Program-made: the position numbers and the translations under genes
The notes under the pieces: model-generated
Seen by the model: only the letters and a program-made list of their open reading frames with translations
Database searches by the model: none
Told to the model about the DNA's origin: nothing
Shown here: positions 26,019 through 58,320 of the stretch, one piece after another
Layout of the letters: every line of letters starts with the position of its first letter
Numbering within the stretch: position 1 is the stretch's first letter
Source of the DNA: Candidatus Beckwithbacteria bacterium
Lineage (GTDB): Bacteria; Patescibacteriota; Microgenomatia; UBA1400; UBA1449
NCBI GenBank assembly: GCA_012797845.1
Contig: JAAZOH010000016.1
Location: 7,733 to 71,732, forward strand
Length of the DNA: 64,000 bases
Reading direction: 5' to 3'

Positions 26019-26024
26019 ATGTAA

Positions 26025-27008: not shown

Positions 27009-27017
27009 AAAATCTCC

Positions 27018-28109
27018 TTAGTGTTTGGTAATAGGGTTTGCCCTTTCGATGCGCAAACCTTCACTACCAAGCGTGGTAGTAAAAGTTGCTAGTTTATGTT
27101 TTTGACAAATTTCTGTAATTTTTGTTTTATCCTTGTGGTAAGCCAGTACAATACCTGAACCTTTTTTGGCTCCGCCGCCGCCACAAATCTTGGCAGCTCC
27201 TCCTGCTTTTTGGATTTGGGCAATAAGTGTTTGAGCTGTTAGCGAGACCACCCCAATTTTTTCTAAATTAATTTCACCCTGGTTGATGAGTTTTTTGACC
27301 GTCACTTCATCTCCATCATGCAAAGCAGTAAGAAGCTGACGACTCACTTCTTCTTGATCTTTTAAAAATTTGGTAAATAAAGCAGGTTTTTTCTGGGAAA
27401 ATAATTTAACCTTATGAACCATTTCTCCAGTTGATTCCGCTGGCTTACCTGTATGTATCAAAATAAAATTTTGAGCTAGTTTTTTAGGGATAGCAAAGTT
27501 AATTGGAGTGATAGTTTTTAAAATCGAGATTTCCTTGCGGTACCACAAAAGTCCTCCAAAACAGGTGATGGCTGTATCAGCTCCAGACGGATTGCCATGC
27601 ATATGTTTTTCAATTGTATGGGCAATAGAGCTAATCACCGTTTTATCAAGCGGTAAACCAAGAGTTGCAGTCAAGGCTCCAGTAGTAGCCACAGCCAAAG
27701 CTGCCGAAGAACCCAAACCAGAACCAGTCTCTAAATCAGAATCAATAGTGAGAGTAAAACCGTTTTTGAGCTGTTTGCGGTAAAATGCAAACGTTTCAAT
27801 GATGGCAATTTTGACATAAGTCAGCTCCGTACTACGACTAAAATCAAGGTATTTAATTTGATTGTCCTGCTCAAATTGTTTTAAGTTTTTTCGAGCTTTT
27901 TGAGTTGAAACTACCATTTGATTAATTGAAGTCTCCTCAGAAAGATTGAGTTTTTTATCTATTAAAACAATCTTATTGTCATTAGTGGGTGTGATTGTAA
28001 CTTGGAGCCTTTTATCAATGGCCGCTAACAAAGCCGGTTTGCCATACACCACACTATGTTCACCCATCAGAATAATTTTGCCTGGTACCGAAACAGTTAT
28101 GCTTTTCAT
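27018..28109 (-). CDS. mvk: Mevalonate kinase (GHMP kinase); start set at the ATG overlapping the upstream stop (ATGA); the ORF track extends to 28175
   Basis: VPGKIILMGEHSVVYGKPAL, GLGSSAALAVA P-loop, C-terminal ICGGGGAKKGSG. Confidence 0.65.
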   Translation of the reverse strand: MKSITVSVPGKIILMGEHSVVYGKPALLAAIDKRLQVTITPTNDNKIVLIDKKLNLSEETSINQMVVSTQKARKNLKQFEQDNQIKYLDFSRSTELTYVKIAIIETFAFYRKQLKNGFTLTIDSDLETGSGLGSSAALAVATTGALTATLGLPLDKTVISSIAHTIEKHMHGNPSGADTAITCFGGLLWYRKEISILKTITPINFAIPKKLAQNFILIHTGKPAESTGEMVHKVKLFSQKKPALFTKFLKDQEEVSRQLLTALHDGDEVTVKKLINQGEINLEKIGVVSLTAQTLIAQIQKAGGAAKICGGGGAKKGSGIVLAYHKDKTKITEICQKHKLATFTTTLGSEGLRIERANPITKH

Positions 28110-29173
28110 ATTGTTAGTAAGGTTTCTAATAATGTAGGATTTGCTTGTAATTTTTGAATAGCTAGTTCTGCCCAAAAGGCAATATCTTGGTGTTTTTGGC
28201 TAAATTGCAAAAGCTGATCCCAAGAAAGCCATTGATAATTACTAAGCTCATTTTTATCTGGAACAATTGCACCAGAATATTTGGCTATCATCAAATAATT
28301 ATGTTCATTTTCCGCTAAAGCTTTTGTCCATTGTTTTTGGTAGTTATAAGTTAGTAAAGGCGTAAAATTGGCAATGGTAATGCCAAGTTCCTGTTTGACA
28401 CGGCGCTGGCAAGCTTTAGTAATATCTTCTCCAAACCAAGGATGTGAAGAAAAACTCATATCCCAATACTGCGGCCACAGTGGTTTAAACTCTGATCTTT
28501 TGGTGAGTAAAATTTGCTGGTGATCATTGACAATAATGGCAGTAAAAGCCCGGTGATGCTGACCTACTCCCTGGTGAGCTGCATATTTTTCAATCTGGCC
28601 TAATTCCTGATCATGCTCATCAACCAAAATCAGTAACTCCTGAAGCTTGGCAAGAATTGTTTTATCTTCTAAAGCTTTAGCCAAACAGGGGGTTACTTTT
28701 ATATCTCCTTGTTGGTATTTTTTCAAAATATCGCTCAAAAAGTACCACTGCCCTCCAGCCACTTCATCTGTATTAAAATTAAAATCACCCTCAAAATTAG
28801 CTTTGTAAACAGTGACTAGCTCTGCTTCACGCTGCGTTTGATAAGAGACTGTACCGATTTGTACAAATTGATCTTTAGGGACAATAACTCCCAATTCTTC
28901 TTGAGTTTCCCGATCCACAGTATCTAGGTAATTCGAGCCAGCATCAACATGGCCTGAAGCCGAAAAAACCCAATAACCAGGGTACAGATCTTTACTTAAG
29001 CTTCGATGTTGTAAAAATATCTGGCCTTTTTGATTAAGAAGAAAAACTACAGCTGCCCGATGTCTTAACTTGGGATTTTGATGACACTCTCCCCTAGTAG
29101 CTTGACCAATCACTTGGTCATGTTGGTCAACAAGGTCAAATAGTTCTGATTGTTTGTCAGTAGTTTGAATCAT
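28106..29173 (-). CDS. Tandem-duplicated Nudix protein, isopentenyl-diphosphate isomerase type 1-like
   Basis: Two IDI-like Nudix halves (HRAAVVFLLNQKGQIFLQHRSLSKDLYPGYW... and HRAFTAIIVNDHQQILLTKRSEFKPLWPQYW...). The catalytic Cys position is Ser in both (SASGH / SFSSH). Confidence 0.55.
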   Translation of the reverse strand: MIQTTDKQSELFDLVDQHDQVIGQATRGECHQNPKLRHRAAVVFLLNQKGQIFLQHRSLSKDLYPGYWVFSASGHVDAGSNYLDTVDRETQEELGVIVPKDQFVQIGTVSYQTQREAELVTVYKANFEGDFNFNTDEVAGGQWYFLSDILKKYQQGDIKVTPCLAKALEDKTILAKLQELLILVDEHDQELGQIEKYAAHQGVGQHHRAFTAIIVNDHQQILLTKRSEFKPLWPQYWDMSFSSHPWFGEDITKACQRRVKQELGITIANFTPLLTYNYQKQWTKALAENEHNYLMIAKYSGAIVPDKNELSNYQWLSWDQLLQFSQKHQDIAFWAELAIQKLQANPTLLETLLTI

Positions 29174-29448
29174 AGTAATTCTTGGGCTAGTTGAAATTTA
29201 ATGCCGTATGGTATCAAATCTTTGGGGCCTACGCTTGATAAGATGCGAACTACTCCGACTACTTGGTCTCCGATTTTGGGTTCTAATAGAGTCGCTGCAA
29301 TAGGCGCTGTTATTTTCTTGCTACCCAAGTCAACAATCCCAATCCATTGTTTATTAGCTTGATTATGAGTAATGCTCATAATAATGCCTTTTTTACCTAA
29401 GAGTTCATGTTGCTGCTTTGCTTTACGCCAATATAGTGCTGGTTCCAT
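29170..29448 (-). CDS. DUF35-like OB-fold protein (thiolase/HMGCS scaffold homologue) lacking the N-terminal zinc ribbon
   Basis: 92 aa with the GKKGIIMSITH...WIGIVDL...IGDQVVGVV pattern of DUF35 OB folds. Directly downstream of the thiolase and HMG-CoA synthase genes, as in the archaeal operon. Confidence 0.45.
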   Translation of the reverse strand: MEPALYWRKAKQQHELLGKKGIIMSITHNQANKQWIGIVDLGSKKITAPIAATLLEPKIGDQVVGVVRILSSVGPKDLIPYGIKFQLAQELL

Positions 29449-29453
29449 AGGTT

Positions 29454-30608
29454 TTAACGGATTAAAACATGGACCACAGCTGTGCCCCCTGTTCCTCCCA
29501 CATTATGAGTAACTGCCACCAGGGCTTCATCAACTTGGCGTTGGCCAGCTACTTGACGCAGTTGAGTAGTAGCTTCTACGATTTGTTTTACACCAGTTGC
29601 TCCCAAGGGGTGGCCACAGGCTTTCAAGCCACCAGAAGTATTGATAGGTTGTTTTCCTCCTAACCAGGTTTCTTGCTTGGTGATATGGCCATACGCTTCG
29701 CCTTGTCTATAAAGCCCTAAATCTTCCATGGCTACAATTTCGGCAATGGTAAAACAATCATGAACTTCAACACAATTAATATCAGCAGCAGTAATACCAG
29801 CCTGGGCGTAGGCAGTTTTGGCAGCTTGTTTACTGGCTGATAAGCTGGTTAAACTTTGGCGGCTGGCCAGCGATAAGCTGTCTTGGGCTTGAGCTGAACC
29901 ATTGATATAGACTCCATTTTTGAGCTGTTTTTTCTTAGCCCAGGAAGGAGCCGCCAAAAATACGGCTGCTGCCCCATCGCTAATAGGCGAACAGTCCAAA
30001 ACTTTGAGCGGGTCAGCTACTTTTGAACTTTTAATCACTTGCTCTAAACTAATTTGATTTTGAAAATGAGCCTTTTGGTTTAAATAACCATGGTAGTGAT
30101 TTTTGACGGCTACTTGAGCCAAATCAGCTTCGCTAGCCCCAAATTTGGCAATATAAGCCTGAGCTATCAAAGCATAAAGTCCTGGAAAATTAAGACCTGC
30201 TAAGTACTCATCTTGATCCGCCGCTGCCATGATGGCTTGGCTAATCTGCTCACTATCAGCATCCGTCATTTTCTCTACTCCTATTACTAAAGCATTGGCA
30301 ATAGCTCCACTAGCAATGGCCTGAACAGCTTGGAAAACCGCCATTCCTCCCGAAGCACAAGCTCCTTCAACCCGAGTCACCGGAGCACTAATACCAAGCT
30401 CCTGAGCTAGCTGCGCTCCTAAATGTTTTTGCCCAAAGCCATTACCACCCAGCATGTTACCTATATACACAGCTTCAACTGAAGCAGTTGTAGCTCCAGC
30501 ATCAGCCAAACACCCTATAGCTGCCTCATGCATCAGATCAGTTAAACTTTGATCCCACAGTTCCCCAAATTGCGTTTGGTAGGCTCCACAGACTGCGACT
30601 TTGTTCAT
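29454..30608 (-). CDS. Acetoacetyl-CoA thiolase, archaeal/SCP2-type
   Basis: EGACASGGMAV catalytic Cys region, C-terminal GHPLGATG and NVGGTGG motifs. 384 aa. Confidence 0.8.
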   Translation of the reverse strand: MNKVAVCGAYQTQFGELWDQSLTDLMHEAAIGCLADAGATTASVEAVYIGNMLGGNGFGQKHLGAQLAQELGISAPVTRVEGACASGGMAVFQAVQAIASGAIANALVIGVEKMTDADSEQISQAIMAAADQDEYLAGLNFPGLYALIAQAYIAKFGASEADLAQVAVKNHYHGYLNQKAHFQNQISLEQVIKSSKVADPLKVLDCSPISDGAAAVFLAAPSWAKKKQLKNGVYINGSAQAQDSLSLASRQSLTSLSASKQAAKTAYAQAGITAADINCVEVHDCFTIAEIVAMEDLGLYRQGEAYGHITKQETWLGGKQPINTSGGLKACGHPLGATGVKQIVEATTQLRQVAGQRQVDEALVAVTHNVGGTGGTAVVHVLIR

Positions 30609-31660
30609 AGATTTCTTTCTAGTATGCCCATTGCTTGTAAATACTGGTCATAACTTAGTTGCTTAGTTTGGTTAATTTGTTTTGTAAAAGCTTCTTGTTC
30701 CTGCTTGGTTCCATTTTTAAGAACGTTAAACCAGATGATATCTGAACCTGCTCCTGAACCATAGGAGGCCAGCAGAATGTTTTGGCCTTTTTTGGCAAAA
30801 GCTAATGTCCGGCACAGACCCAGTAGCGATGAGGCTGAATAAGGATTGCCAATATCTTTGACCGTAAAACCAGCCTCAAGCTGTTTGGAGTTGATTTTGA
30901 GTTTTTGGGCTAATTTCAGAGGAAATTTACCATTGGGCATATGAAAAACAATGTGATCAAAGTCGTCTAGTTTGGCTTTAGTTTTTTGCAAAAAATAAGC
31001 CAAGTTGCTTTCGATATGGTGGAAATAGCCTGGTTCACCACTAAAACGACCGGCATGTTGGGGAAAAATCTGCTCTGGACGGCGCCAAAAATCAGGCGTG
31101 TCAGTGGCATAAGAAGAGGTCGCTACCACTTTGGCTCGACCTGGTCGGCAGCCAATAATGAGGGCTACAGCGGCACTGGCAGCCGCGTATTCTAAAACGT
31201 CACTGGGTTGGCTTTGGGCTTTATCGCTGCCGATAATCAGGGCAGCTTTAATCATTTGAGCTTCGACTAAACCACTGCCAATTTGTAAACCACTGGTTCC
31301 AGCTTTGCAGGCAAATTCCAAGTCTGCACAAAAGTAATGAGGTGATAATCCTAACCAGGAAGCCACAATACTACCCGAAGGTTTGACCGCATAAGGATGG
31401 GATTCACTACCCATCAACACTGCTCCAATTTGATTTTTGGCATAATTTGAGCCAGCTAAAGCCCGACCAGCTGCCATGATAGCCATCGTAATGGCATCTT
31501 CATCCCAGTTTGCTATCGACTTTTGATAAAGTCCTAAAGAGCTACTAATACTAGCTCCATCTTCCTGATAAGTTTGAGCAATAGTATCGACTGTAATTCG
31601 GCCCGAAGGAATATAGCTGGCAATTGTATCTAGATAAACGTGTTGTAATTTCTTAATCAT
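30605..31660 (-). CDS. mvaS: HMG-CoA synthase, short archaeal-type
   Basis: 351 aa, catalytic Cys in FCADLEFACKAGTSGL, GSGAGSD C-terminal motif. 4-nt overlap with thiolase. Confidence 0.8.
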   Translation of the reverse strand: MIKKLQHVYLDTIASYIPSGRITVDTIAQTYQEDGASISSSLGLYQKSIANWDEDAITMAIMAAGRALAGSNYAKNQIGAVLMGSESHPYAVKPSGSIVASWLGLSPHYFCADLEFACKAGTSGLQIGSGLVEAQMIKAALIIGSDKAQSQPSDVLEYAAASAAVALIIGCRPGRAKVVATSSYATDTPDFWRRPEQIFPQHAGRFSGEPGYFHHIESNLAYFLQKTKAKLDDFDHIVFHMPNGKFPLKLAQKLKINSKQLEAGFTVKDIGNPYSASSLLGLCRTLAFAKKGQNILLASYGSGAGSDIIWFNVLKNGTKQEQEAFTKQINQTKQLSYDQYLQAMGILERNL

Positions 31661-32801
31661 GTTTCCCTCTGCCTAAACTTTGGTGAGCACAAGCCAGTTG
31701 GTTACTAGCTAAAGCTGCAGTCAAAGATAATTCTCCTGCCAAAACCACAGCCCCAATAATTTCAGCCAAATATGAAGCACTACCTGTAAAAGGCTTATCA
31801 ATTCCTAAAATAGTCAAGGCCTCCTGCTGAGTGGGCAAATGAGTTCCTCCACCCACGGTACCCACCATAAGACTGGGCAGGTAAACTGAAAAATAAAGCT
31901 TATCTCCATCTAGTTCCGCACTGGTTACACCCAGACTACCTTCAACTATATGAGCTAAATCCTGACCAGTTGCCAGATAGGTAGCCGCAACGATATTGGC
32001 AAAATGGCCGTTATAGCCTAAAGAGCCGTGCAGAGCCGAACCCAAAAGCTGTTTTGATTGCACAGTTTCCACTATGTTTTGTGGTGAGGTTTTTAAAACT
32101 GTTTCGACAATTTCTTTGGCAATAATAGTTTCAGCCCAGACTTTTTTGCCTCGACCTGATAAAAATGTTGACCAAGCTGGTTTTTTATCAACACAAGCAT
32201 TGCCTGATAAAATTGTGGTCACTTCAAATTTTTTGCTGATAAAATCTAACATTGCCTGAGTGGCCATGGTAACCATATTCATACCCATAGCTTCGGCCGT
32301 ATCAAAACTAAAACGCAGATACAGATGTTTGCCAGCCAGCTGGTATTGCCAGTTTTGTAAGGCAAGATGTGACTCGGTTTCATGAGCCAAGGTTTTCAGT
32401 TCTTCCCAATGCGTATCAATAAAAGCAATAATTTGTCTACCTTGAGCAATGTTGGTGAGTTTGAGGTGAGGACCTCTGGAAGCCCCCACATTTTCATGAA
32501 AACTGGTAATACCACCAGACAAACGAGTCGCTTTTAAACCTCGATTAATACTGGCAAGCAAAGCTCCTTCGGTAGTTGCCAAAGGAATATCCAGCTCTTT
32601 TTGCCCAAACTGATCTGAGTTTAAAAGGAGTGGACCAGCTATTCCCATCGGTACTTGAGCAATACCAATCATTTGCTCGCAGTTGCGATTTTGAGCTAAG
32701 TTTAAGTCAATAACTGCTCCGCCAATGTGGGGTAGTTTTTTTGATAACTTAGTTTCTAGACTAGCTCGTCTATCTTGAGGATTTATAGTAGTACGGTTCA
32801 T
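31653..32801 (-). CDS. hmgA: HMG-CoA reductase, class I catalytic domain
   Basis: VPMGIAGPL, TTEGALLAS, EAMGMNMV, GNACVDKKP, GTVGGGT motifs. Confidence 0.85.
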   Translation of the reverse strand: MNRTTINPQDRRASLETKLSKKLPHIGGAVIDLNLAQNRNCEQMIGIAQVPMGIAGPLLLNSDQFGQKELDIPLATTEGALLASINRGLKATRLSGGITSFHENVGASRGPHLKLTNIAQGRQIIAFIDTHWEELKTLAHETESHLALQNWQYQLAGKHLYLRFSFDTAEAMGMNMVTMATQAMLDFISKKFEVTTILSGNACVDKKPAWSTFLSGRGKKVWAETIIAKEIVETVLKTSPQNIVETVQSKQLLGSALHGSLGYNGHFANIVAATYLATGQDLAHIVEGSLGVTSAELDGDKLYFSVYLPSLMVGTVGGGTHLPTQQEALTILGIDKPFTGSASYLAEIIGAVVLAGELSLTAALASNQLACAHQSLGRGKHD

Positions 32802-33175
32802 TTACTTTTTTTGATCTTAATAACTTGCCATAGCCAAAATCCTAAATAGAGAAAGCTCAGAAAAGACAGGAGTAAAACCAGACTAATCGAGGCTTTAGTT
32901 AAAAAACCCCATTGCCCTGGCGGTGCATCAATGAGTCTGCGACCAAGCCAAATAGTTGCTAAACCACCAGCAAACACATAGGCTGGAAAACCAAAAATTA
33001 AAATAATTTGCGAAAAATCCTGTTCCCGAAACATAGCTCGCACCGTCTGGAACGGATGTGTAACTAGTCCCAACCAGTTGCGGACAAAAAGATAGCCTTC
33101 TTTAATAGAAAGTAAAATGGAGTATTTAACTATCCTGGTCGAAGTAGCTTGACTGGTAAAGATAAGCTTTAGCAA
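32798..33175 (-). CDS. Small membrane protein, candidate anti-sigma factor
   Basis: Three hydrophobic segments; overlaps the 3' end of the ECF sigma gene. Confidence 0.3.
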   Translation of the reverse strand: MLKLIFTSQATSTRIVKYSILLSIKEGYLFVRNWLGLVTHPFQTVRAMFREQDFSQIILIFGFPAYVFAGGLATIWLGRRLIDAPPGQWGFLTKASISLVLLLSFLSFLYLGFWLWQVIKIKKSK

Positions 33176-33692
33176 AGGCTAAACGGGCTCGAGACAATCT
33201 CGATTCTGCAGCTTTATAACTGATCTGTAGCTGGGCAGCAATAGCATGCACGCTCAAACCTTCCATATATCTTAGTCGTAAAATCTTAGCATTTCCTTCG
33301 CTCAGTTTTTTAAAGGTGGCAAAAATCTTAAGTTTTGCCTCTTTTTCTTCTAAAGCCAGTTGTGGTCCCAAAGCTTTATCAACAATTTGCTCTAAAAATG
33401 GGAATTTGGAAAACAGCAAAGTTTTAATCTTTTTACGCCGGTAGTAATCAACCAACTCGTGATGGGCAATAGCTCTGACCCAGGTTTTGAAACTGCTTTG
33501 ACCTTTATAGGTAGGCAAGCTATCAAAAACAGCTAAGATAGTATCTTGAATTATTTCTTCTCTATCTCGGCTGTTGCTGATTTTATGATCAAAATACGTA
33601 GCTAAATACGGTTTTAATTTTCGGTAAAATTGCAGCACAGAGCGTGGTTTTTCCAAAATGACATTGGTAAGTTGCTGCTCATTAAATTCCAT
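33126..33692 (-). CDS. ECF-type RNA polymerase sigma-70 family factor
   Basis: Region 2 (IIQDTILAVFDSL...FKTWVRAIAHHELVDYYRRKK) and region 4 HTH (LRYMEGLSVHAIAAQLQISYKAAESRLSRARLAF). Confidence 0.7.
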   Translation of the reverse strand: MEFNEQQLTNVILEKPRSVLQFYRKLKPYLATYFDHKISNSRDREEIIQDTILAVFDSLPTYKGQSSFKTWVRAIAHHELVDYYRRKKIKTLLFSKFPFLEQIVDKALGPQLALEEKEAKLKIFATFKKLSEGNAKILRLRYMEGLSVHAIAAQLQISYKAAESRLSRARLAFAKAYLYQSSYFDQDS

Positions 33693-33693
33693 A

Positions 33694-34740
33694 TTATTTA
33701 TTTCTACTTAGCATAAATTCTAACAAATTTTTCAGCGTATCCTGATGCTTTTTATTATCTGTGAGTTCTGGGATGAGTTTCAACCCTTCTTCAAAATAGT
33801 CTTGAGCTTGAGACTGAGCCGCTTCTACTACTTTATATGTTCGCATGAATTGTTTAATAGTAGCAATATTTTGGTCGTTACGAACTTTTTTTGCAAATAA
33901 TCTTTCAAAAGTTTTTTTATCAGCCTCTTTAAGTTTTTGGTATAAAATTTCAATAAGAACCGTCCACTTAGCTTCTCTAATATCACCACTATTAGTTTTA
34001 CCAGTTTGGCTTTCATCACCAAAACTACCAATAATATCATCCTGGATTTGGAAAATCCGACCTAAGCATTGACCATATTGCTCTAATGTTGCCAGCCACT
34101 TTTTGTCTTGTTGTCCCGCTAGTATTGCCCCCAACATCAGCGGTAAAACTCCCGAATAGCTGACCGTTTTAAAATCATGGATATATTGGGCCGAGCTTTG
34201 CTTGGCAGCAAGTGATATATATGGTGTACTCATATCCCAACCTTGCCCCCAACCGACTTCTACAGCCTTTTTGAAAAAATAGTTTAAAGCTTTGATTTTT
34301 ACATCTGGTTCAAAATTGGTGTGTTCTAAAGCTAAGGGAGCTAAGTAAAAACCAATGTTGGCCGTATTAAAAGCCATGCTATAACCATAATGCAAAGGTT
34401 TATCTTGGGCCCACTGTATATGAATAGTCGGCTGACCACGTCTTACCTCATCATTATCATAAACATCATCAGCAATCAGTCCTGCGGTCTGGAGTAGCTC
34501 CACCATCATCGAAGCTTTATAGATACAAGCTTGACGTTTACCTCCTGATAAATGATACGCTAAAACAACTAATGCTCCTCGAAACTGCTTGCCTTTAGGA
34601 TAAAGCTCTACAAATTTTTCTAAAATTTGCTCTGGAATAACTCCTGTTTGTTTAGCTTGTTTTTGCCAAGAGCTAAAAAAATTTTGCCAATATGGTTTAA
34701 CTTTACTTTGATAGTCTTGCAGAAAATCTTCAATTTGCAT
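33694..34740 (-). CDS. trans-Isoprenyl (polyprenyl) diphosphate synthase
   Basis: First DDxxD (LIADDVYDND) and second (FQIQDDIIGSFGD) aspartate-rich motifs. Confidence 0.8.
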   Translation of the reverse strand: MQIEDFLQDYQSKVKPYWQNFFSSWQKQAKQTGVIPEQILEKFVELYPKGKQFRGALVVLAYHLSGGKRQACIYKASMMVELLQTAGLIADDVYDNDEVRRGQPTIHIQWAQDKPLHYGYSMAFNTANIGFYLAPLALEHTNFEPDVKIKALNYFFKKAVEVGWGQGWDMSTPYISLAAKQSSAQYIHDFKTVSYSGVLPLMLGAILAGQQDKKWLATLEQYGQCLGRIFQIQDDIIGSFGDESQTGKTNSGDIREAKWTVLIEILYQKLKEADKKTFERLFAKKVRNDQNIATIKQFMRTYKVVEAAQSQAQDYFEEGLKLIPELTDNKKHQDTLKNLLEFMLSRNK

Positions 34741-34759: not shown

Positions 34760-34768
34760 TGGTATAAT
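34760..34768 (+). promoter_or_regulatory. Extended -10 (TGGTATAAT) candidate promoter for the pilin-like gene array
   Basis: TGnTATAAT consensus 36 nt upstream of the first pilin-like ATG; no good -35. Confidence 0.3.
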
Positions 34769-34803: not shown

Positions 34804-35133
34804 ATGTTTCAAGTAAATATCGGTGAAAAGTTTATTTTAGGTGAAGGAGGGGTAGGCATAGGAACCAGCAATAGTGGCTATGACACCCTGGGTATAGTGA
34901 TATCAAATTTAGTTCCTAATATTTTAGTTATTGCTAATATTATTTTGTTTTTCTTTATTTTATTTGGTGGATTTACTATCATTACAAATGCCGGCAATCC
35001 TGACAAGCAAGCTGAAGGAACCAAAACATTAACTTGGGCTTTTGTTGGTTTTTTGATTATTTTTGGAGCTTATTGGATTATGCAAATTCTTAAAATCATT
35101 ACTGGCTTTGATTTACTTAATAGCCAATTGTAA
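34804..35133 (+). CDS. VirB2/TrbC-like pilin family protein, paralogue 1
   Basis: Two hydrophobic helices flanking the conserved loop GGFTIITNAGNPDKQAEGTKTLTWAFVGF. All 7 paralogues share GG(F/I)xW(I/T)TSxGDxxK...A(K/R)xx(I/T)xxAxxGL. Confidence 0.5.
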   Translation: MFQVNIGEKFILGEGGVGIGTSNSGYDTLGIVISNLVPNILVIANIILFFFILFGGFTIITNAGNPDKQAEGTKTLTWAFVGFLIIFGAYWIMQILKIITGFDLLNSQL

Positions 35134-35142
35134 AATATACGT

Positions 35143-35505
35143 ATGTTACTTTCACCATTAATCGGTCAATTTACTCCGCCTCCTCAATTTAAAGGACTTT
35201 TAAACCCGAATGGATACGCAGCTGATCCAAGTGGTTTGATCATGCTTATTAGTAATTTGGTTAAATTTTTTATCATTCTGGGTGGTTTAGCTGCATTTGT
35301 CAATTTTCTATTGGCTGGTTTTCAATATATTACCCAAGGAGACAAACCGGATGAACTTTCCCGAATTCATACTAAAATGTATATGTCGATTATTGGCTTA
35401 GTAGTCATGGTAAGCGCAGTAGTATTAACTGGAATTATCAGCTTTATTTTATATGGCGATCCAAGTTTTATTTTAAACCCACAGGTATATGGACCAAATC
35501 CATAA
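35143..35505 (+). CDS. VirB2/TrbC-like pilin family protein, paralogue 2 (divergent)
   Basis: Same two-helix topology; loop AGFQYITQGDKPDELSRIHTKMYMSIIGL. Confidence 0.45.
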   Translation: MLLSPLIGQFTPPPQFKGLLNPNGYAADPSGLIMLISNLVKFFIILGGLAAFVNFLLAGFQYITQGDKPDELSRIHTKMYMSIIGLVVMVSAVVLTGIISFILYGDPSFILNPQVYGPNP

Positions 35506-35511
35506 AAAGGT

Positions 35512-35961
35512 ATGAAATATCTAAAACAAATTTCAATATTTTTTGTTTTACCAATACTATTATTTTTATTGAGCACAACTGCTTTAGCTCAGTACGCCAC
35601 TCCTTTAAATCCTGGCAAGGGTCTTGATGGTGGCATTGGTCCTTATAATGTCCCCATTGGTTCGGGTGATATAGCTTATCTATCAAAATTGGAGTCAATT
35701 TTTTCCATAGTAGTCAGTTTTATGACTATTTTGACTGGCTTATTTTTTATTATTCATTTTGTAATTGGTGGGTTTACCTGGTCTACAGCTGGTGGAGATA
35801 GTCAAAAAGTAGAAACAGCTAAAACTAAAATGACTAATGCTGCTATTGGGTTGATTATTGTAATTGCCTCTTATTCGATTATTTATATTATTGGCAAAGT
35901 ACTTGGTTTGGATATACTTAATGTTGGCAGTTTGATTTATACATATTTACGTCCTAGTTAA
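35512..35961 (+). CDS. VirB2/TrbC-like pilin family protein, paralogue 3
   Basis: Signal peptide ending ALAQ, then GGFTWSTAGGDSQKVETAKTKMTNAAIGLII. Confidence 0.5.
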   Translation: MKYLKQISIFFVLPILLFLLSTTALAQYATPLNPGKGLDGGIGPYNVPIGSGDIAYLSKLESIFSIVVSFMTILTGLFFIIHFVIGGFTWSTAGGDSQKVETAKTKMTNAAIGLIIVIASYSIIYIIGKVLGLDILNVGSLIYTYLRPS

Positions 35962-35966
35962 TATTT

Positions 35967-36326
35967 ATGGCTTTTTTGCAATTTATCCAGATTCCTGGTC
36001 TTTCAGGTATTAAAAATAGCGTTATCAATTCCAGTGAAGGAACGTATAGCGGAGTTGATAATTCAAGTCCTTTAGCTGCCCTGATTGCTAGATTGTGGTT
36101 AGTAGCTGTTATCCTAGGCTCACTGGCTGTAATATTATTTCTAGTCATGGGAGCCATAGATTGGATTTCGAGCGATGGAGATCCTGAAAAAATTAAAAAG
36201 GCTCGTAATAAAATCGTTGATGCTGTTGTTGGTTTGGGAATATTAGTAGCTTCGTTTGCTATTGTGAAATTTTTAGAATGGATATTTGGATTTGATATAT
36301 TAAATATTTCTTGGCCAACTCCATGA
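35967..36326 (+). CDS. VirB2/TrbC-like pilin family protein, paralogue 4
   Basis: MGAIDWISSDGDPEKIKKARNKIVDAVVGLGIL. Confidence 0.5.
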   Translation: MAFLQFIQIPGLSGIKNSVINSSEGTYSGVDNSSPLAALIARLWLVAVILGSLAVILFLVMGAIDWISSDGDPEKIKKARNKIVDAVVGLGILVASFAIVKFLEWIFGFDILNISWPTP

Positions 36327-36784
36327 AAATTAAAACCCTAATCATTTCATGTATTGCTGCTTTTTTTGCCTTTCTTTTTCAAAGTGAGCTGGTTTTTGCT
36401 CAGGTAAACACCGATATTGGTTCAGCTGTATCCCAACATGGATTTTTTAAAGATAATATCGGTACTTTTATTACACAAATCATTAATACTGGTCTTATTT
36501 TAGGTGCTATTCTTTGTCTGTTTTATCTTATTATTGGAGCTATTGAATGGATTACCTCTGAAGGTGATCAAAATAAAAATGAATCAGCTCGAAAAAGAAT
36601 TACTGCTGCAGTAGTCGGTTTAGGGGTTATGGCTTGTATTTATGCCTTATGGGTCTTAGTATTGTATTTCTTTGGTATTGATAAGATTTCTAATTTTAAT
36701 ATTGGCAGTAATCTAAAACACAATTTTTCAAATGTAAGTTCACTATTGAATCATGATGGGATTAGTTATCCTGGTTCTTGCTAA
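36323..36784 (+). CDS. VirB2/TrbC-like pilin family protein, paralogue 5 (start at the ATG overlapping the upstream stop; ORF track gives TTG at 36311)
   Basis: Signal peptide ending VFAQ, then IGAIEWITSEGDQNKNESARKRITAAVVGLGVM. Confidence 0.5.
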   Translation: MKIKTLIISCIAAFFAFLFQSELVFAQVNTDIGSAVSQHGFFKDNIGTFITQIINTGLILGAILCLFYLIIGAIEWITSEGDQNKNESARKRITAAVVGLGVMACIYALWVLVLYFFGIDKISNFNIGSNLKHNFSNVSSLLNHDGISYPGSC

Positions 36785-36920
36785 TCTCTGATAACTTTTA
36801 GGAGTTAGTGTGAATAAATATCTCTCTTGACTTAGCAAAATCTTAAAGTCATAGTATAATAATAGTAAGATAGAATATAAAAAGTATTATTAATATTTTA
36901 ATAAATAATTTACAATTCTT

Positions 36921-37331
36921 TTGAAAGGCGGTGACAGTATGAAACAAGTTACACAAAAAATCATTCAAGCAGCATTGACAGCTGGTGCTGTTATTTTCAC
37001 TACTGTCAGCCCAATACTGGCTCAGGGGAACATAACCATCGAGGAGCCCACTGGTGGAGTTAAAGATTTTGGAAAACTCTTATCTGCTGGTATTCAAACT
37101 GCTATTATTCTTGCAGCCATTCTAACCTTTGCTTTCTTGATTTGGGGAGGTATTCAATGGATTACATCCGGAGGCGATAAAGCTGCTTATGAAGCTGCAA
37201 GAGGTCGAATTACTGCAGCTTTAGTAGGGCTTGCTATTGTAGCCGCAGCTTGGGCTGTTATGAAACTAGTTGGTTATTTCTTTGGAGTTAACGTTTTTGA
37301 TTTTGAAATTCCAACTGCATCAGGAAGTTAG
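36921..37331 (+). CDS. VirB2/TrbC-like pilin family protein, paralogue 6; candidate major subunit (own RBS GGCGGTGA and own terminator)
   Basis: Signal peptide ending ILAQ, then WGGIQWITSGGDKAAYEAARGRITAALVGLAIV. Preceded by a 137-nt AT-rich spacer and followed by a strong terminator. Confidence 0.55.
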   Translation: MKGGDSMKQVTQKIIQAALTAGAVIFTTVSPILAQGNITIEEPTGGVKDFGKLLSAGIQTAIILAAILTFAFLIWGGIQWITSGGDKAAYEAARGRITAALVGLAIVAAAWAVMKLVGYFFGVNVFDFEIPTASGS

Positions 37332-37353
37332 TTTATTCTAAATGCATAAATTT

Positions 37354-37385
37354 AAAAACCCGGCTTTGCCGGGTTTTTTGTTGCG
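37354..37385 (+). terminator. Rho-independent terminator AAAAACCCGGC-TTTG-GCCGGGTTTTTTG
   Basis: Perfect 6-bp GC stem (CCCGGC/GCCGGG) with T6 tail, immediately after pilin paralogue 6. Confidence 0.75.
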
Positions 37386-37418
37386 TTAATATAACTATCA
37401 TGAGAAAATAGTGAATAT

Positions 37419-37844
37419 ATGAAATTGAGCAAAACTCTACTAGCTTCTCCTTTTTTTATTACTTACTTTTTACTGTTCACTGCTAGTGAGGCTTTTGCTC
37501 AATCTAATTGGTATAGCTCCCAAGATGGTAGTAAACCAGCTACCTTTAAAGATTTAGAAATTGTCTTTAGTAATATTTTAGGTTTATTTATTCCTTTGGC
37601 TGGAGCCGCTGTTTTTATTATGATCATTATTGGTGGATTTACCTATATGACTTCTGGCGGCAATCCCGAAGCAAATGCTAAAGCAGGAACCACTTTAACC
37701 TGGGCAGTAGTCGGACTTTTATTTCTTTTAGGTGGTTGGTTTATCCTCCGTTTTATTAGCAACTTTACTGGTGTTGATGTGACTATCTTTACTATTCCTG
37801 CTCCCGCTTCAACCCCTAATCCTTATAGTCAGATGGGTTTTTAG
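37419..37844 (+). CDS. VirB2/TrbC-like pilin family protein, paralogue 7
   Basis: Signal peptide ending AFAQ, then IGGFTYMTSGGNPEANAKAGTTLTWAVVGLLFL (closest to paralogue 1). Confidence 0.5.
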   Translation: MKLSKTLLASPFFITYFLLFTASEAFAQSNWYSSQDGSKPATFKDLEIVFSNILGLFIPLAGAAVFIMIIIGGFTYMTSGGNPEANAKAGTTLTWAVVGLLFLLGGWFILRFISNFTGVDVTIFTIPAPASTPNPYSQMGF

Positions 37845-37902: not shown

Positions 37903-40900
37903 ATGTTACCTTTCCACAAATTACTGGTATTTAACCCATGCCTACACCCTAGTCGGAAACTTCTTGTAATCCTTTTTTTTATTGCAATTTTATTAACTTA
38001 TCTACAAATCATTTATCCTCAATTAGCAAGAGCTATTGATCCAAATGTGGATTTTTTCAACACACATGAATTTACTCAAGTTACTAATGCATCTTTATCA
38101 CTCTATGATCACCCAGGGACAAGCGAAGGTCATCCCCTAGACAGTCAGGCTCCTCAACTTACAGGTCTTCTTGAAGGAAATACTTCCCCATCAGTTACTT
38201 CTGTATACCAAACTACTCCTATTACTGGAGTTGACTATGACAGTTCCTGGGCTAATAATCGTCTTCCAGGGGTTGGAGCTACAGTAGCTGGTTTTAGTAG
38301 TCAAAGCGGACAATCGGTTCAAGTGCCACCATCAGGCTACGATATTGGTGAGGGACGAACTGCTACTATTCTTTATTATGATAATAATAGTGTAACTATT
38401 AATTACGGCAATGTTGGAGAGTTCCAGACAGGATATACTATTCATATTTCTGGAATCCAAGCTAATTCAGAATTATTGGCTTCATATCAACAAGCTGTAG
38501 CTGAGGGGAAATTACTTGCAGTATCTGCTTTTCAAGAGCTAGGAACTGCTCTAAGCTCAGAAGTGCTAGTTGCAATTAGAGACACTGGAGCTCTAATGGA
38601 TCCTCGTTGGCTTGGGGATTGGTGGCAGTACGTTTATGATCCACTTGATCCATTAAATCCAAAACTTCTTGACCCAACAAAGCCTCCTTTACCAAAATTA
38701 GACAATCAATGTACTGTAGGTGATTCTTTACCACCTGATGGCATACTGCGCCCAAATCCTTGTCAAAACTGTACATTATTAGTACCAGATCCTACTAACT
38801 CTTGCGCTACTCAACCAGTTTTACAAAAAACAGGTACCTGGGGCTGTGGTGAACAGGCTTATCGTTGCGAAGGCGAAAATGATGAAGGTGGACTTGATCA
38901 TGATGGTGATTATGTTTTTCTTAAAGATTGGGCAGCAGTGTTTAAAATTAATACTAAAAATACTACGAAGGTTCCTTTTGCTGGTTATCGTAATATCGAA
39001 AAAAAAGATGAAAGATCGACTAATCTTAACAATTATTTACGTGATTATTTTGAAGGCACATTACTTTATGATCGAATTGATGAAAAAAATCCAATCAGTT
39101 TTTCAAATGCTGAGGATATACGAAATTTAAATCTAGAAGCTGGTGTTTTTAGAAAATTAGCTCCTACCTATGTTCAGGACGAACTAAGAAAAGCTATGAT
39201 TAAAAAGAGATATAACTATGAAATTACTAACTGCCAGCAAGGTCCAAATAAAGATACTTGTGCGGATGGAAAAAGCACTAGATATTACAAAACAATGAAT
39301 GAATGGCTGGCTAAAGCAAAACCTTGGCCAGATGGATATTATCCACCAACTTCACCAGATTACCAAGAATGCAATACTATTACTGAGTATTGGGCTGTTT
39401 TTAATTGTGTTAATCAGGCTGATCAAACATACGCTAATGCATATAAAAATTGGTCTGATACTCCTTGGGGTTTACTTTGGTCTTATATTCCTCTTTTTAC
39501 AAGAGAAGACGCTCCAGGCTCAGTTACTTTGACTATTGAACATAAACCAGGGGAACTAGAAACTGCCGGGGTTGGATCAAATAAAGGAAAGTATGCTGCT
39601 GAATTCCCTATGGCTTTCCCTCATTTAGCTGGCTTATATGAAGCTTCTCTTAACTTAAATAAATTACTATTACCAACTATGTTGCAAGATAAGATAGCTA
39701 GTAATAACAGCTCCTCTTCTTTGGTTAGTAAACCTAGCCAAAATATACTTCTAGCTCAGGCCCAAACTTTGGATGACACTATTGGATCAGAGATGTATTT
39801 AGCACAAGCTAGTTCAGATAATACTACTGAACCTGTACCAGAAACCTGGTACCAAACTTCAACTGGTTTGCGACCCAATGAAGATGGTACTACTAGTTGG
39901 TTTTTTGATCTAACTAAAAATAATAATTTTGCTGATGAAGGTAGTTATGATATGGTCCATATGGAGTTTTTTGTTTATGTTAATGGTGAACAAGTAGCAG
40001 CGTATCATGATAGTCCTAGTGTCGAACAAGGGCTTCATTACTCTGAACATATTCCAGATTCTATACAGTTGACACCTGGCGAACAACTCGAAGTTTCTGT
40101 TTTTATTAACAATGGAGCTCAAGCTATCAATGCTATTAAAGAAGATATAGTAGGCAAAACTTTTATTTCAAATTGTACTGTCCAGACTGATGGCAGTATT
40201 GCTTGTGACGGGGTATTGATGAAAATACCAGAACCTCAACAAACCAATTGTCGTAAAAATGGTTCGAGTATAGATAAAAATTGTTCTGGAAATGATCCGA
40301 TTTCTGATTATAATCCAAACGATGAAGTTTGCTGTAATGCTACTGCCAAAGCTACTATAGAAGATTATAAAATTTTTGTGAGTGAAGGTACTTACAAAGG
40401 TGCTTGTGTATGCCCAGCTAGCAACCCGGATTGTGACCTAGATGGAGGAGGTTCAGAATTAATGACTCGACAAGTTGAAGTTAGGCTAAAAATTCCTTAT
40501 TTAGAAAAAATCTATGCTTTAACAACAGGCTCTGAAGCAGGGGTTTTTAATATCTTCCGACCTCAAAATTTTTCAGAATATCCAGACAATGATGCTTTAT
40601 CTGGTATTACCTATGAGCTTGTATCAGGAGATGGAGTTAGTATTGTTCCTGATAGCGGCAATCTTTATTACCCTTATTTAGGTGGAATCCAGGAAACCAA
40701 AAAGTGTCTATCTGAACAGTTTTTGGTTCCTAGAGAACTCCAAAATGGGCAGGAGCAGTGTGGTTTTTGGTCATGGAATCGATATTTAGGAAGTACATCA
40801 GCCTTAGATTTATTGACCAAAGGCTGCACGTCTATGGAAGGCACAATTGATTATCGAAATTCTACTGGTTTTAATAAAGAATCTATAAGAGCTAATGGTT

Positions 40901-41292
40901 TGACTAGAATTAATGCTAATGGCTATTGGAGTTCTGATGAATTTACTAAGAATTTTGATATGGTTTACGATTCTGCGATAGCAGCTGGCTGGAATCCTGC
41001 GTTCGTAGTTGCTCTATGGATCGAGGAATCAGGAGGTTCAGCAGTTACTGCTTGGGATTTAGGATGCAAATATGGCAAAACTAGTACTGGTAGCATGTTA
41101 ATGCCTAAAAATAATATTGCCCTACAGCTTGAATGTTTATTTGAAAAAGACTATGCTACTTTGCCTTGGGAAGAATTTGCACTCACTTATGCCGAAGGTG
41201 CCAGAGAAGGTCGGCAGGATCCGGACAAATTTTGTAATAATCCTAATTTTCCAGGAGGGATTATCAGCGTCTATGAAGCACTAGTTAAATAG
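37903..41292 (+). CDS. Large (1129 aa) Cys-rich secreted/surface protein; C-terminal ~150 aa have a lytic-transglycosylase-like Glu motif (VVALWIEESGGSAVTAWDLG)
   Basis: N-terminal signal/anchor (LLVILFFIAILLTYLQIIYPQLARA), more than 25 Cys in the CxxC/C-x-C spacing typical of extracellular domains. The C-terminal motif is only suggestive. Confidence 0.5.
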   Translation: MLPFHKLLVFNPCLHPSRKLLVILFFIAILLTYLQIIYPQLARAIDPNVDFFNTHEFTQVTNASLSLYDHPGTSEGHPLDSQAPQLTGLLEGNTSPSVTSVYQTTPITGVDYDSSWANNRLPGVGATVAGFSSQSGQSVQVPPSGYDIGEGRTATILYYDNNSVTINYGNVGEFQTGYTIHISGIQANSELLASYQQAVAEGKLLAVSAFQELGTALSSEVLVAIRDTGALMDPRWLGDWWQYVYDPLDPLNPKLLDPTKPPLPKLDNQCTVGDSLPPDGILRPNPCQNCTLLVPDPTNSCATQPVLQKTGTWGCGEQAYRCEGENDEGGLDHDGDYVFLKDWAAVFKINTKNTTKVPFAGYRNIEKKDERSTNLNNYLRDYFEGTLLYDRIDEKNPISFSNAEDIRNLNLEAGVFRKLAPTYVQDELRKAMIKKRYNYEITNCQQGPNKDTCADGKSTRYYKTMNEWLAKAKPWPDGYYPPTSPDYQECNTITEYWAVFNCVNQADQTYANAYKNWSDTPWGLLWSYIPLFTREDAPGSVTLTIEHKPGELETAGVGSNKGKYAAEFPMAFPHLAGLYEASLNLNKLLLPTMLQDKIASNNSSSSLVSKPSQNILLAQAQTLDDTIGSEMYLAQASSDNTTEPVPETWYQTSTGLRPNEDGTTSWFFDLTKNNNFADEGSYDMVHMEFFVYVNGEQVAAYHDSPSVEQGLHYSEHIPDSIQLTPGEQLEVSVFINNGAQAINAIKEDIVGKTFISNCTVQTDGSIACDGVLMKIPEPQQTNCRKNGSSIDKNCSGNDPISDYNPNDEVCCNATAKATIEDYKIFVSEGTYKGACVCPASNPDCDLDGGGSELMTRQVEVRLKIPYLEKIYALTTGSEAGVFNIFRPQNFSEYPDNDALSGITYELVSGDGVSIVPDSGNLYYPYLGGIQETKKCLSEQFLVPRELQNGQEQCGFWSWNRYLGSTSALDLLTKGCTSMEGTIDYRNSTGFNKESIRANGLTRINANGYWSSDEFTKNFDMVYDSAIAAGWNPAFVVALWIEESGGSAVTAWDLGCKYGKTSTGSMLMPKNNIALQLECLFEKDYATLPWEEFALTYAEGAREGRQDPDKFCNNPNFPGGIISVYEALVK

Positions 41293-41352: not shown

Positions 41353-43254
41353 ATGTCTTTATCTTTCTCAGAAAAAATACTATCTTTATTTTTTTCTATT
41401 ATTGTCGGTATAGGATTATTAGTTTCTGTTGCTCCTGCTATAGCAAGAGCTCAAGAAGGACAAGCTTGTAGTGATACCAGTCCTTGTCCTAGTGGTTATG
41501 AATGTGCTGGAGATAATACTTGCACATATGAAGGTAATCCTTACAAGGATATGTCTCACATGGAACATACTGGAGCTCCTTGTACTCCAAACTCTGACGG
41601 GACAACAGGAACCAGTTGTCCTACTGGATATTACTGTGCATTAGTTGATGGGGAAGGTAAATGTGAAAGTAGTTATTACGCCTCTTATGATCAAGAAACT
41701 GCTGCTTCTTTACAAAATAATGCTGCTTCCCAATGGAACAACTATTGGCTTGATCAGAATAAATTAAGTTATGACACAGAAGCTTTTGGGAGTACAAGCA
41801 TAGGTGATTCCCAATTTGCAAGACGACAATACAGACTAACTATCAATGCAATTACATCAGAAATTGTTGGGCCAGAACCTGAAGTAACATTAGCTTTTGG
41901 TTTACCAGAGGATTCTGGAGCTATTGGAGCTTTTACAAAAGGTGTTACTTTTATGGCTTCTAAACCGCCAGTCAAAACTAGTGCCTATTTAGCTGATCTG
42001 GGCAGACAAATGAATTTAGTCACTCCAGCTTATGCTCAGGGTACTGGTTTTCAGGCTTTAGAACCAGTGTTGGAATTATGGAAGGCTTTTCGTAATATCT
42101 CTTACGTGGGGTTTGTTCTCATATTTGTAGTTATTGGGTTTATGATTATGTTTAGAGCTAAAATTGGTCAACAAGCAGCGCTCACTATTCAACAAGCTCT
42201 ACCCCAAATTGTCATTACCTTGCTTTTAGTTACATTTTCATATGCTATTGCTGCTTTTATGATTGATTTAATTTTCTTTCTGATTTACTTAGCAGTGGGA
42301 GCTTTTGAAGCTTTTGGGATTTTAAATGCACCTAGTTCATCAAACTATGTTAATGTTGTTGAAAATATCTTTTTTGAGAAAAACATTTTGACTATTGCAC
42401 TTCAAGACTTACTATCTTGGGGGACTGATCAAGCTGCAGGAAGTGCCTCATATGCTTTAGGAGACATGATCCAACAAGCTTTTCCAGGTATTATTGGTTC
42501 AGGCCTAGCTTTCATTAGTGCTCCCTTAGGCTATCTTATAATAGCAGTAGCAATTTTAATTGCTGTTTTTAAGCTTTTCTTCCAGTTACTTATGGCCTAC
42601 ATTGGTTTGGTATTTAGTGTTATTTTTGCTCCTATGATCTTACTCTTCAATGCTATTCCTGGTAGTGATAGTTTTGGTAAATGGATTAAAGGTTTGCTAG
42701 CTAATGCTTTAGTTTTCCCAGTTACTGCCGTAATGATTCTGATAGCTGGAGCATTGACTAATAGTCAAAAATTTGGAATTGCTGACGATATTGGCTATCA
42801 ATTTAGTGGTACTACTAAAGTCTTAGGAGTACCTTTTATTAGTGGTGGTTTTGACACTAATGCTATCCAAGCTCTCATTGGTATTGGGGTCTTGATGATG
42901 CTACCTAAAGTAGTTGAGCTAGTCCAAAAATCCCTTGGTGTTGAGGGTGGTTTGGCTGGCATGATGGGTTCTATTGCCGAACCTTTGTCTGGAGGAGCTG
43001 GCCGAGTCTTTGGAACTGCTGGTATGCTAGGTGGAGCTGGGTATCGAGCTGCTACTACTGGCAGCGAAATCGGTAGAGCAGAAGCCATGTATGGACCAAA
43101 TGTTTATGAAAGAGGTTTAAGTAATACACTTAGACATATGCTGGGAATGGGTATGAAAGTTAAACCTGGATTTGTAAATCAACGATGGAATTCGGGAAGT
43201 GGTACTACAGATACCGGAAATGGAACAGGTACGAGAACAGGAACTACTAGTTAA
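41353..43254 (+). CDS. Polytopic membrane protein with Cys-rich N-terminal ectodomain and Gly-rich C-terminus; VirB6/TrbL-like candidate
   Basis: Signal peptide (AIARAQE), ectodomain with ~10 Cys, then 6 or more TM helices (FVLIFVVIGFMIMF, IVITLLLVTFSYAIAAFMIDLIFFLIYLAV, LIIAVAILIAVFKLFFQLLMAYIGLVFSVIFAPMILLF...). Confidence 0.4.
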   Translation: MSLSFSEKILSLFFSIIVGIGLLVSVAPAIARAQEGQACSDTSPCPSGYECAGDNTCTYEGNPYKDMSHMEHTGAPCTPNSDGTTGTSCPTGYYCALVDGEGKCESSYYASYDQETAASLQNNAASQWNNYWLDQNKLSYDTEAFGSTSIGDSQFARRQYRLTINAITSEIVGPEPEVTLAFGLPEDSGAIGAFTKGVTFMASKPPVKTSAYLADLGRQMNLVTPAYAQGTGFQALEPVLELWKAFRNISYVGFVLIFVVIGFMIMFRAKIGQQAALTIQQALPQIVITLLLVTFSYAIAAFMIDLIFFLIYLAVGAFEAFGILNAPSSSNYVNVVENIFFEKNILTIALQDLLSWGTDQAAGSASYALGDMIQQAFPGIIGSGLAFISAPLGYLIIAVAILIAVFKLFFQLLMAYIGLVFSVIFAPMILLFNAIPGSDSFGKWIKGLLANALVFPVTAVMILIAGALTNSQKFGIADDIGYQFSGTTKVLGVPFISGGFDTNAIQALIGIGVLMMLPKVVELVQKSLGVEGGLAGMMGSIAEPLSGGAGRVFGTAGMLGGAGYRAATTGSEIGRAEAMYGPNVYERGLSNTLRHMLGMGMKVKPGFVNQRWNSGSGTTDTGNGTGTRTGTTS

Positions 43255-58248: not shown

Positions 58249-58320
58249 TGGAATCGGAAGGACTCGAACCTTCAACCACCAAGGTATAAGCTTGGAGCTC
58301 TACCATTGAGCTACGATTCC
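58249..58320 (-). tRNA. tRNA with anticodon UAU (tRNA-Ile2-like, reads AUA)
   Basis: Cloverleaf folded by hand: acceptor GGAATCG/CGATTCC, D-arm GCTC-AATGGTA-GAGC, anticodon arm CCAAG-CTTATAC-CTTGG, T-arm GAAGG-TTCGAGT-CCTTC. 72 nt, CCA not encoded. Confidence 0.7.

Follow-up and report, generated by a model that had tools for sequence, protein, structure and literature searches.

Patescibacteria represent much of the diversity among uncultured bacteria, and they live attached to other cells. In the single species examined by genetics, the saccharibacterium Southlakia epibionticum, a type IV secretion system (T4SS) and its series of pilins proved essential for the attached lifestyle (Wang et al. 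2023, PMC10633639), and a 2025 review counts six sequence-divergent VirB2-like pilins in this organism (PMC12857230). A broader survey by Quinonero-Coronel et al. (2025) described 441 VirB2 arrays with 2–11 pilin genes in 383 Patescibacteria assemblies, most abundant in Microgenomatia and frequent in Saccharimonadia as well, with a mean within-array identity of 25% (PMC12102498). Comparing these arrays with Bartonella and Anaplasma, the same survey tentatively proposes adaptation to different hosts; it also reports VirB6 to be 'scarce' in Microgenomatia, and virB4 to lie near the arrays in 1135 of 1948 assemblies, and hence not to be obligatory (PMC12102498). Here, we analysed a 64-kilobase (kb) chromosomal stretch, hereafter the window, from a metagenome-assembled genome (MAG) of Candidatus Beckwithbacteria (Patescibacteria, class Microgenomatia), in which seven co-directional open reading frames (ORFs) occupy positions 34804–37844 of the + strand. 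An earlier note, made from the sequence alone, had described them as seven tandem, divergent paralogues of a VirB2/TrbC-like two-helix pilin; the tandem set is there, with ORFs at exactly these coordinates, and the observation is a correct rediscovery of an already published phenomenon. We consider it somewhat better than an even bet (probability of roughly 0.55) that the seven genes represent a conserved Microgenomatia 'heptad' of VirB2-like T4SS pilins that work as a fixed major-plus-minor or heteromeric assembly. The genes, with lengths in amino acids (aa) and scores against the Pfam family PF18895, are as follows.

34804–35133, + strand: pilin 1, 109 aa, without signal peptide, 35.0 bits
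35143–35505, + strand: pilin 2, 120 aa, without signal peptide, 35.4 bits
35512–35961, + strand: pilin 3, 149 aa, leader ending ALAQ, 34.6 bits
35967–36326, + strand: pilin 4, 119 aa, without signal peptide, 32.6 bits
36311–36784, + strand: pilin 5, 157 aa from TTG 36311, leader ending VFAQ, 33.5 bits
36921–37331, + strand: pilin 6, ORF of 136 aa, leader ending ILAQ, 30.2 bits
37419–37844, + strand: pilin 7, 141 aa, leader ending AFAQ, 35.5 bits

All seven proteins score above the gathering threshold of PF18895 (T4SS_pilin), with 30.2–35.5 bits against 26.6 and E values of 1e-8 to 5e-7, and the same label is precomputed on all seven gene calls; membership in this family is far above chance level. 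A Pfam scan of the seven pilins brought no other family to its own threshold. For the canonical TrbC/VirB2 family PF04956, whose threshold is 27.9 bits, pilin 7 comes closest with 20.3 bits (E 6.5e-4), the others giving at most 13 bits or no match. The paralogues are strongly divergent: in the alignment of the seven, global identity to pilin 1 is 20–28%, and local BLAST identity between paralogues is 22–49%, pilins 5 and 6 being the closest pair (49%). The published survey counts as a Patescibacteria VirB2 array two or more pilin genes that stand in tandem or are one gene apart, with identity of about 25% and at most 54% (PMC12102498); with seven genes in tandem, 20–28% global and at most 49% local identity, the window array falls within this definition.

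Leaders with ends of the A-x-A-Q type can be read from the sequence in ORFs 3, 5, 6 and 7, the four signal peptides that the earlier note had counted. ORFs 1, 2 and 4 carry no leader, and no longer ORF is possible for any of the three. Translation of pilin 5 probably starts at ATG 36323 (153 aa, matching the gene call), and that of pilin 6 at ATG 36939 (130 aa, as in NCBI entry GYA49_02390). For pilin 6, AlphaFold2 (67 sequences) predicts a leader helix at residues 2–27 followed by a hairpin of two helices (44–76 and 81–115; predicted local distance difference test, pLDDT, 95–98) joined by a loop of four residues. Hydropathy analysis finds two to four hydrophobic segments in each of the seven pilins, and within orthogroups it is the hairpin and loop that are best conserved, with variable tails at the N- and C-termini. 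The alignment of the seven also yields the loop consensus GGFxWITSGGDPxKxxxAxxxxTxAxVGLxI between two hydrophobic helices. The shared topology and loop motif claimed before were thus recovered, but the motif is degenerate, its sole invariant column being the G of VGL. Likewise, the assignment to VirB2/TrbC-like two-helix pilins holds as far as PF18895 in all seven and the modelled hairpin of pilin 6 are concerned, but not at the level of PF04956. Searches against solved conjugative pilins gave no sequence match in the PDB and no profile or fold match, a bare helical hairpin not being discriminable by fold searches; it is Pfam family, topology and gene context that point to the identity of these proteins as pilins.

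To place the array among its relatives, we seeded a genome scan with the alignment of pilins 4–6, which returned 80 loci, and searched all their ORFs with a hidden Markov model of the seven pilins. These loci are overwhelmingly labelled Patescibacteria, with finer labels from Microgenomatia (Beckwith-, Chisholm-, Collier-, Woese- and Gottesmanbacteria), and nearly every one holds a tandem array. The modal contiguous array length is exactly seven, found in 48 of the 80 loci. Seven pilins in a row, which the earlier note had called unusual, are indeed unusual beside classical T4SSs, but seven is the modal size in Microgenomatia, and arrays of 2–11 genes have been published. Across the 48 seven-gene arrays, window pilins 1–7 find their best match at their own rank in 40, 47, 47, 35, 11, 48 and 45 cases, respectively; the best match of pilin 5 is usually the protein at position 6 (37 of 48), pilin 6 being its closest paralogue. 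Same-rank matches are mostly reciprocal-best, at 36–57% identity compared with 22–49% between paralogues.

Paralogues (about 25% amino-acid identity) and nearest orthologues (about 50–75%) are saturated at synonymous sites. A search of the array for DNA repeats, inverted repeats, recombination tracts and phase-variable runs, partly as the earlier note had suggested, returned short chance-level matches only, and the signature of recent amplification (paralogues closer than orthologues, accompanied by repeats) is absent from the window array. As judged from these comparisons, the heptad is older than the split of these lineages, with its gene order conserved. Because collinear reciprocal-best orthologues extend across Beckwith-, Collier-, Woese-, Gottesman- and Chisholmbacteria, the divergence of the paralogues is old and maintained rather than ongoing; positional orthology and the missing DNA repeats both speak against a diversification that is recent or still under way. 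The high divergence noted earlier is therefore real, but the diversification that it was taken to suggest is unsupported.

Position 6 stands out from the rest of the heptad. It is the most conserved, with a mean pairwise identity of 57% among non-window orthologues, compared with 36–44% at the other positions. Median intergenic gaps across the arrays are 4, 1, 3, 2, 62 and 70 nucleotides (nt), and in the window the gaps between genes 1–5 measure 9, 6, 5 and −16 nt; to judge from this spacing, genes 1–5 are probably co-transcribed. Three putative transcription signals were located in the window array.

34760–34768, + strand: TGgTATAAT, a promoter-like element of the extended −10 type, 36 nt upstream of the start codon of pilin 1; candidate promoter P1 for pilins 1–5
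36832–36860, + strand: sigma-70-like promoter TTAGCA-17-TATAAT upstream of pilin 6, with 10 of 12 matches
37356–37379, + strand: intrinsic terminator, a GC-rich hairpin AAACCCGGC-TTT-GCCGGGTTT followed by a T run, after pilin 6

In 53% of 49 arrays, the 90 nt upstream of position 6 contain a promoter match of at least 10/12, compared with 0–8% at other positions and 2–3% in shuffles. Besides the window, 22 of 48 other arrays (46%) have a terminator-like hairpin after position 6, and none of the 48 has one after another position. This pattern suggests that position 6 forms its own strongly expressed monocistronic unit and is a candidate major subunit. The array would then comprise three apparent transcription units, namely an operon of positions 1–5, position 6, and position 7 with the downstream genes. 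A separate observation concerns Collierbacteria-like loci (e.g. L026, L017, L030, L032, L021), in which the motif GATTTTACTGTAAAATA is conserved closely upstream of the gene at array position 1; the 7-mers of its core occur in 14–19 of 49 arrays, with fewer than one expected, and not in the window, which carries TGgTATAAT.

Three further genes in the window encode putative T4SS components.

41353–43254, + strand: divergent VirB6/TrbL-like polytopic membrane protein, 633 aa, with a signal peptide and about six transmembrane (TM) segments
54506–57241, + strand: membrane-anchored M23 peptidase, 911 aa, Peptidase_M23 at 91.7 bits
58387–60717, − strand: VirD4/TraD-like type IV coupling ATPase, 776 aa, two N-terminal TM segments, Walker A motif GKTGTGKS

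The VirB6-like gene starts 3.5 kb downstream of the array, and its homologues follow the array in 58 of the 80 loci (L003–L082). Its AlphaFold2 model has a pLDDT of 75 overall and mostly about 90 or above in the membrane core, and in a Foldseek search of the PDB, TrwI/VirB6 chains from the T4SS of R388 fill the top seven places (E 1.3e-3, probability 1.0, TM-scores of only 0.3–0.4), followed by DotA. In addition, the VirB6-like homologue P0148 carries PF04610 (TrbL), and weak TrbL matches occur in two locus homologues. With the structural model as a guide, this 633-aa family may be a good candidate for the VirB6 that was called scarce in Microgenomatia (PMC12102498); the gene linked to the array was previously unrecognised. 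VirB1-like proteins of Patescibacteria with M23 domains have been described (PMC12102498), and the M23 peptidase of the window is possibly a cell-wall hydrolase of the apparatus, which would tie it to the array. The coupling ATPase matches TrwB_AAD_bind (31.7 bits, cut-off 20.5) and TraG-D_C (23.6 bits, cut-off 22), the NCBIfam TraD and VirD4-like models staying below threshold.

The pilin family is very broad: the profile of the seven pilins retrieves 82,956 family representatives from 1.84 billion proteins (E up to 0.001), some of which carry several hairpins in one polypeptide. P0241 has 6 hairpins in 552 aa and P0253 has 17 in 1775 aa; P0250 and P0251 are two-domain fusions of a 3-like and a 4-like pilin. 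Within such polypeptides, some repeats are nearly identical to each other through recent internal duplication; others combine different orthogroups, in the order of the array. These may be natural fusions, a gene-calling or genetic-code artefact also being conceivable. We also noted 'giant pilins', secreted proteins of about 320–980 aa whose last 70 or so residues form a T4SS_pilin hairpin. One lies at 10728–13535 of locus L046, with similar ORFs in L051, L052, L053, L055, L056 and L069 (Woesebacteria-like), directly after the array, and hairpins thus occur at the C-terminus of ectodomains of about 800–900 aa; mid-size versions are found in L012 (10381–11448), L080 (5397–6548), L066 (6535–7653), L072 (6126–7520) and L061 (6205–7884). 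To judge from the fusions, the hairpins would work alongside one another and have their termini outside, which fits a heteromeric assembly, yet also keeps a membrane complex in play.

Taken together, these observations lead us to the following picture. Each pilin would form a hairpin in the membrane, its two ends outside the cell and its conserved TSGGD..K..AR loop lying on the cytoplasmic side in the membrane form and on the lumen side in a filament. The seven would have non-redundant parts in a single surface structure, for whose construction a monoderm-type T4SS would use the adjacent VirB6-like protein as platform, VirB6 being the proposed platform for VirB2 polymerisation (PMC12857230). 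Because it appears to have its own strong promoter and terminator, position 6 would provide the abundant major subunit; positions 1–5, in one tightly packed operon, and position 7, encoded on the same strand as the VirB6-like gene and a large secreted protein and just upstream of both, would provide specialised subunits of lower abundance. The function of the whole structure, by analogy with Saccharibacteria, might be contact or exchange with a host cell. The most specific form of this proposal, an obligate multi-subunit VirB2-type filament with position 6 as the major and six ancient, non-redundant minor subunits, assembled on a divergent VirB6 in a monoderm, is tentative, and we would sooner bet against it than for it. 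If true, it would be the first heteromeric conjugative-type pilus, and the hairpin and giant-ectodomain fusions would be variations on this theme.

Several points weigh against a fixed major-plus-minor or heteromeric assembly of this kind. A T4SS pilus has been observed in no Patescibacterium and is described as an 'intriguing possibility' (PMC12857230). No VirB4-like protein was found among the scanned ORFs of the 64-kb window; going by the survey, virB4 would be expected close to dnaA/dnaN (PMC12102498). The promoter and terminator calls are consensus matches only and are absent in about half of the arrays. Since the 80 loci were chosen by similarity to pilins 4–6, the conservation of position 6 could be inflated, an effect that the comparison of non-window sequences reduces but does not remove. 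To our knowledge, heteropolymeric VirB2-type pili are without precedent. Polyproteins of up to 17 hairpins, moreover, may be easier to reconcile with a membrane assembly than with a filament.

This last point leads to a reading in which the proteins form no filament at all and act as integral parts of a translocon or as a hetero-oligomeric channel or ring, the word 'pilin' then reflecting remote VirB2 ancestry only. Monoderm T4SSs are normally pilus-free (PMC12102498, PMC10633639), which agrees with the absence of any pilus seen in Patescibacteria (PMC12857230); the covalent linkage of 2–17 tandem hairpins in single polypeptides is more readily imagined in a bundle within the membrane, and a cleavable leader is missing from three of the seven pilins. 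However, VirB2 pilins, too, are membrane hairpins before extraction, hairpins placed C-terminally to ectodomains of 800–900 aa look like display on an external structure, one highly conserved and putatively strongly expressed member is typical of a polymerising major subunit, and the adjacency of VirB6 matches the proposed platform of pilus assembly. We regard a purely membrane-bound role as unlikely, though the likeliest of the competing readings. That the profile match itself misleads, and that the seven belong to an unrelated family of small membrane proteins such as holins or bacteriocin immunity proteins, we consider very improbable. Profile matches of short two-TM proteins can be driven by composition, and no PDB sequence match speaks for a pilin; nevertheless, all seven exceed the PF18895 cut-off, the polar loop motif is conserved and not compositional, synteny with the VirB6-like gene is conserved, no holin or immunity family of Pfam appears even at E up to 1, and a comparison with PHROGs gave neither a holin nor any other phage family. 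This check had been named in the earlier note as a possible refutation.

The same note had offered antigenic or host-range variation, a heteropolymeric filament, or major and minor subunits as explanations. Under the first of these, the paralogues would be alternative pilins, each building its own homopolymeric pilus for different hosts, an idea offered for Bartonella Trw and Anaplasma VirB2 and tentatively for Patescibacteria (PMC12102498). The strong divergence between paralogues, the variability within orthogroups of tails that would be surface-exposed, and three apparent transcription units that could permit differential use are all in keeping with it. Yet the paralogues are ancient and conserved in position across candidate orders, unlike a lineage-specific amplification; the array lacks repeats, recombination tracts and phase-variable runs; genes 1–5, packed 0–10 nt apart, would be co-expressed rather than switched; and in S. 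epibionticum the pilin series as a whole was reported essential on a single host (PMC10633639). We therefore hold alternative pilins to be quite unlikely. Heteropolymer or major and minor subunits, the other explanations offered, fit best, and a fixed major-plus-minor or heteromeric assembly is favoured over antigenic variation because the set is ancient and fixed, has one conserved and putatively strongly expressed member, and is linked to a VirB6-like gene.

The genomic setting can be traced in public data. Pilin 6 is 100% identical to GYA49_02390 of Candidatus Beckwithbacteria, the 633-aa neighbour is identical to GYA49_02405 of a Candidatus Beckwithbacteria MAG, and metagenome run ERR1876141 holds the same DNA. 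Upstream of the array, the minus strand encodes a polyprenyl synthase, an extracytoplasmic function (ECF) sigma factor and a mevalonate-pathway gene cluster; downstream follow, in this order, a 1129-aa protein, the 633-aa membrane protein, three large ORFans, the M23 peptidase and the VirD4-like coupling ATPase. Two of these neighbours have the following coordinates.

33126–33692, − strand: ECF-type sigma factor (Pfam Sigma70_r2, Sigma70_r4_2, Sigma70_ECF)
37903–41292, + strand: large secreted or anchored modular protein, 1129 aa, with one N-terminal TM segment or leader, directly after the array

Homologues of the ECF sigma factor lie upstream of the array in 41 of the 80 related loci, and this recurrent placement suggests that it may regulate the array; no ECF-type promoter motif was recognised in the region upstream of pilin 1. 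Downstream of the sigma factor, a small protein with two TM segments is encoded (32798–33175, − strand) that could be an anti-sigma factor. The mevalonate-pathway cluster followed by the polyprenyl synthase (25002–34740, − strand) stands directly upstream of the array, an arrangement that is partly syntenic in related loci; the cluster comprises genes for a thiolase, an HMG-CoA synthase-like protein, HMG-CoA reductase, two GHMP kinases, diphosphomevalonate decarboxylase and a double NUDIX protein.

The 1129-aa protein matches no Pfam or NCBIfam family. In a jackhmmer search, 24 loci have a homologue of it immediately behind position 7; a genome scan that started from the protein itself found no relative. 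It has no C-terminal pilin hairpin, and jackhmmer detected no homology between it and the giant pilins of other loci. A lysozyme or VirB1-like C-terminus, considered on account of a WIEESGG motif, was dropped, as neither the PDB nor Pfam supported it. The three large ORFans (43321–46275, − strand, 984 aa; 46480–47835, + strand, 451 aa; 47896–53253, − strand, 1785 aa) have no Pfam, NCBIfam or PADLOC match and no homologue in the 80 related loci; lying between the VirB6-like gene and the M23 peptidase, they look like a variable island. They are followed by a 247-aa polytopic membrane protein (53716–54459, + strand) with an HExxH-like HELSH motif and no family match. Its homologues lie downstream of the array in four Beckwithbacteria-like loci (L022, 10467–11249; L003, 17788–18483; L012, 18454–19311; L009, 12874–13524), in L022 immediately flanked by the large protein and the VirB6-like gene. 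To judge from its motif, it may be a membrane metalloprotease; a part in pilin maturation is pure speculation.

Elsewhere in the window, a tRNA-Ile with anticodon TAT (UAU) is encoded at 58248–58320 (− strand). This tRNA is uncommon in bacteria, where AUA is usually decoded by a lysidine-modified CAU tRNA. At 14424–15362 (− strand), a strong match to Pfam Adenyl_transf (streptomycin/aminoglycoside 6-adenylyltransferase; E 3e-65) was found on this Patescibacteria chromosome.

Among systems outside this family, a functional analogy to a fixed set of subunits is provided by type IV pili and type II secretion pseudopili, which combine an abundant major subunit with conserved, low-abundance, non-redundant paralogues encoded together; in fold and assembly machinery, they are unrelated to the window pilins. 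Canonical VirB2/TrbC/TraA pilins (PF04956; T-pilus structures 8cue and 8exh) share with the window pilins a leader, two long hydrophobic helices, a short polar loop and a VirB6 partner, but are encoded by one gene per system, whereas the window pilins stay below the PF04956 cut-off and lack a leader in three of seven cases. Rows of VirB2-type genes within a single T4SS also occur in Bartonella Trw (the trwL copies) and in Anaplasma phagocytophilum, both cited in the survey (PMC12102498), where they are read as surface variation; these are diderm intracellular pathogens with canonical TrbC/VirB2 pilins, interpreted as amplified for variation. The Beckwithbacteria array, in contrast, lies in a monoderm, belongs to another Pfam family and consists of ancient paralogues in conserved order.

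By far the closest match is with the published Patescibacteria VirB2 arrays, which share with the window array PF18895, the phylum, 2–11 tandem genes, identity of about 25%, a chromosomal location and a context without relaxase. The window is an instance of these arrays and differs from them in nothing fundamental; unlike many of them, it does not adjoin virB4. The kind of system has been described already and no new kind is added here, so that the comparative value of this locus is moderate. The modal size of seven, the positional orthogroups, the promoter and terminator unit of position 6 and the VirB6-like linkage are details that we did not find in the two published accounts (PMC12102498, PMC10633639), and among them it is position 6 that marks the subunit to seek first in filaments or transcriptomes.

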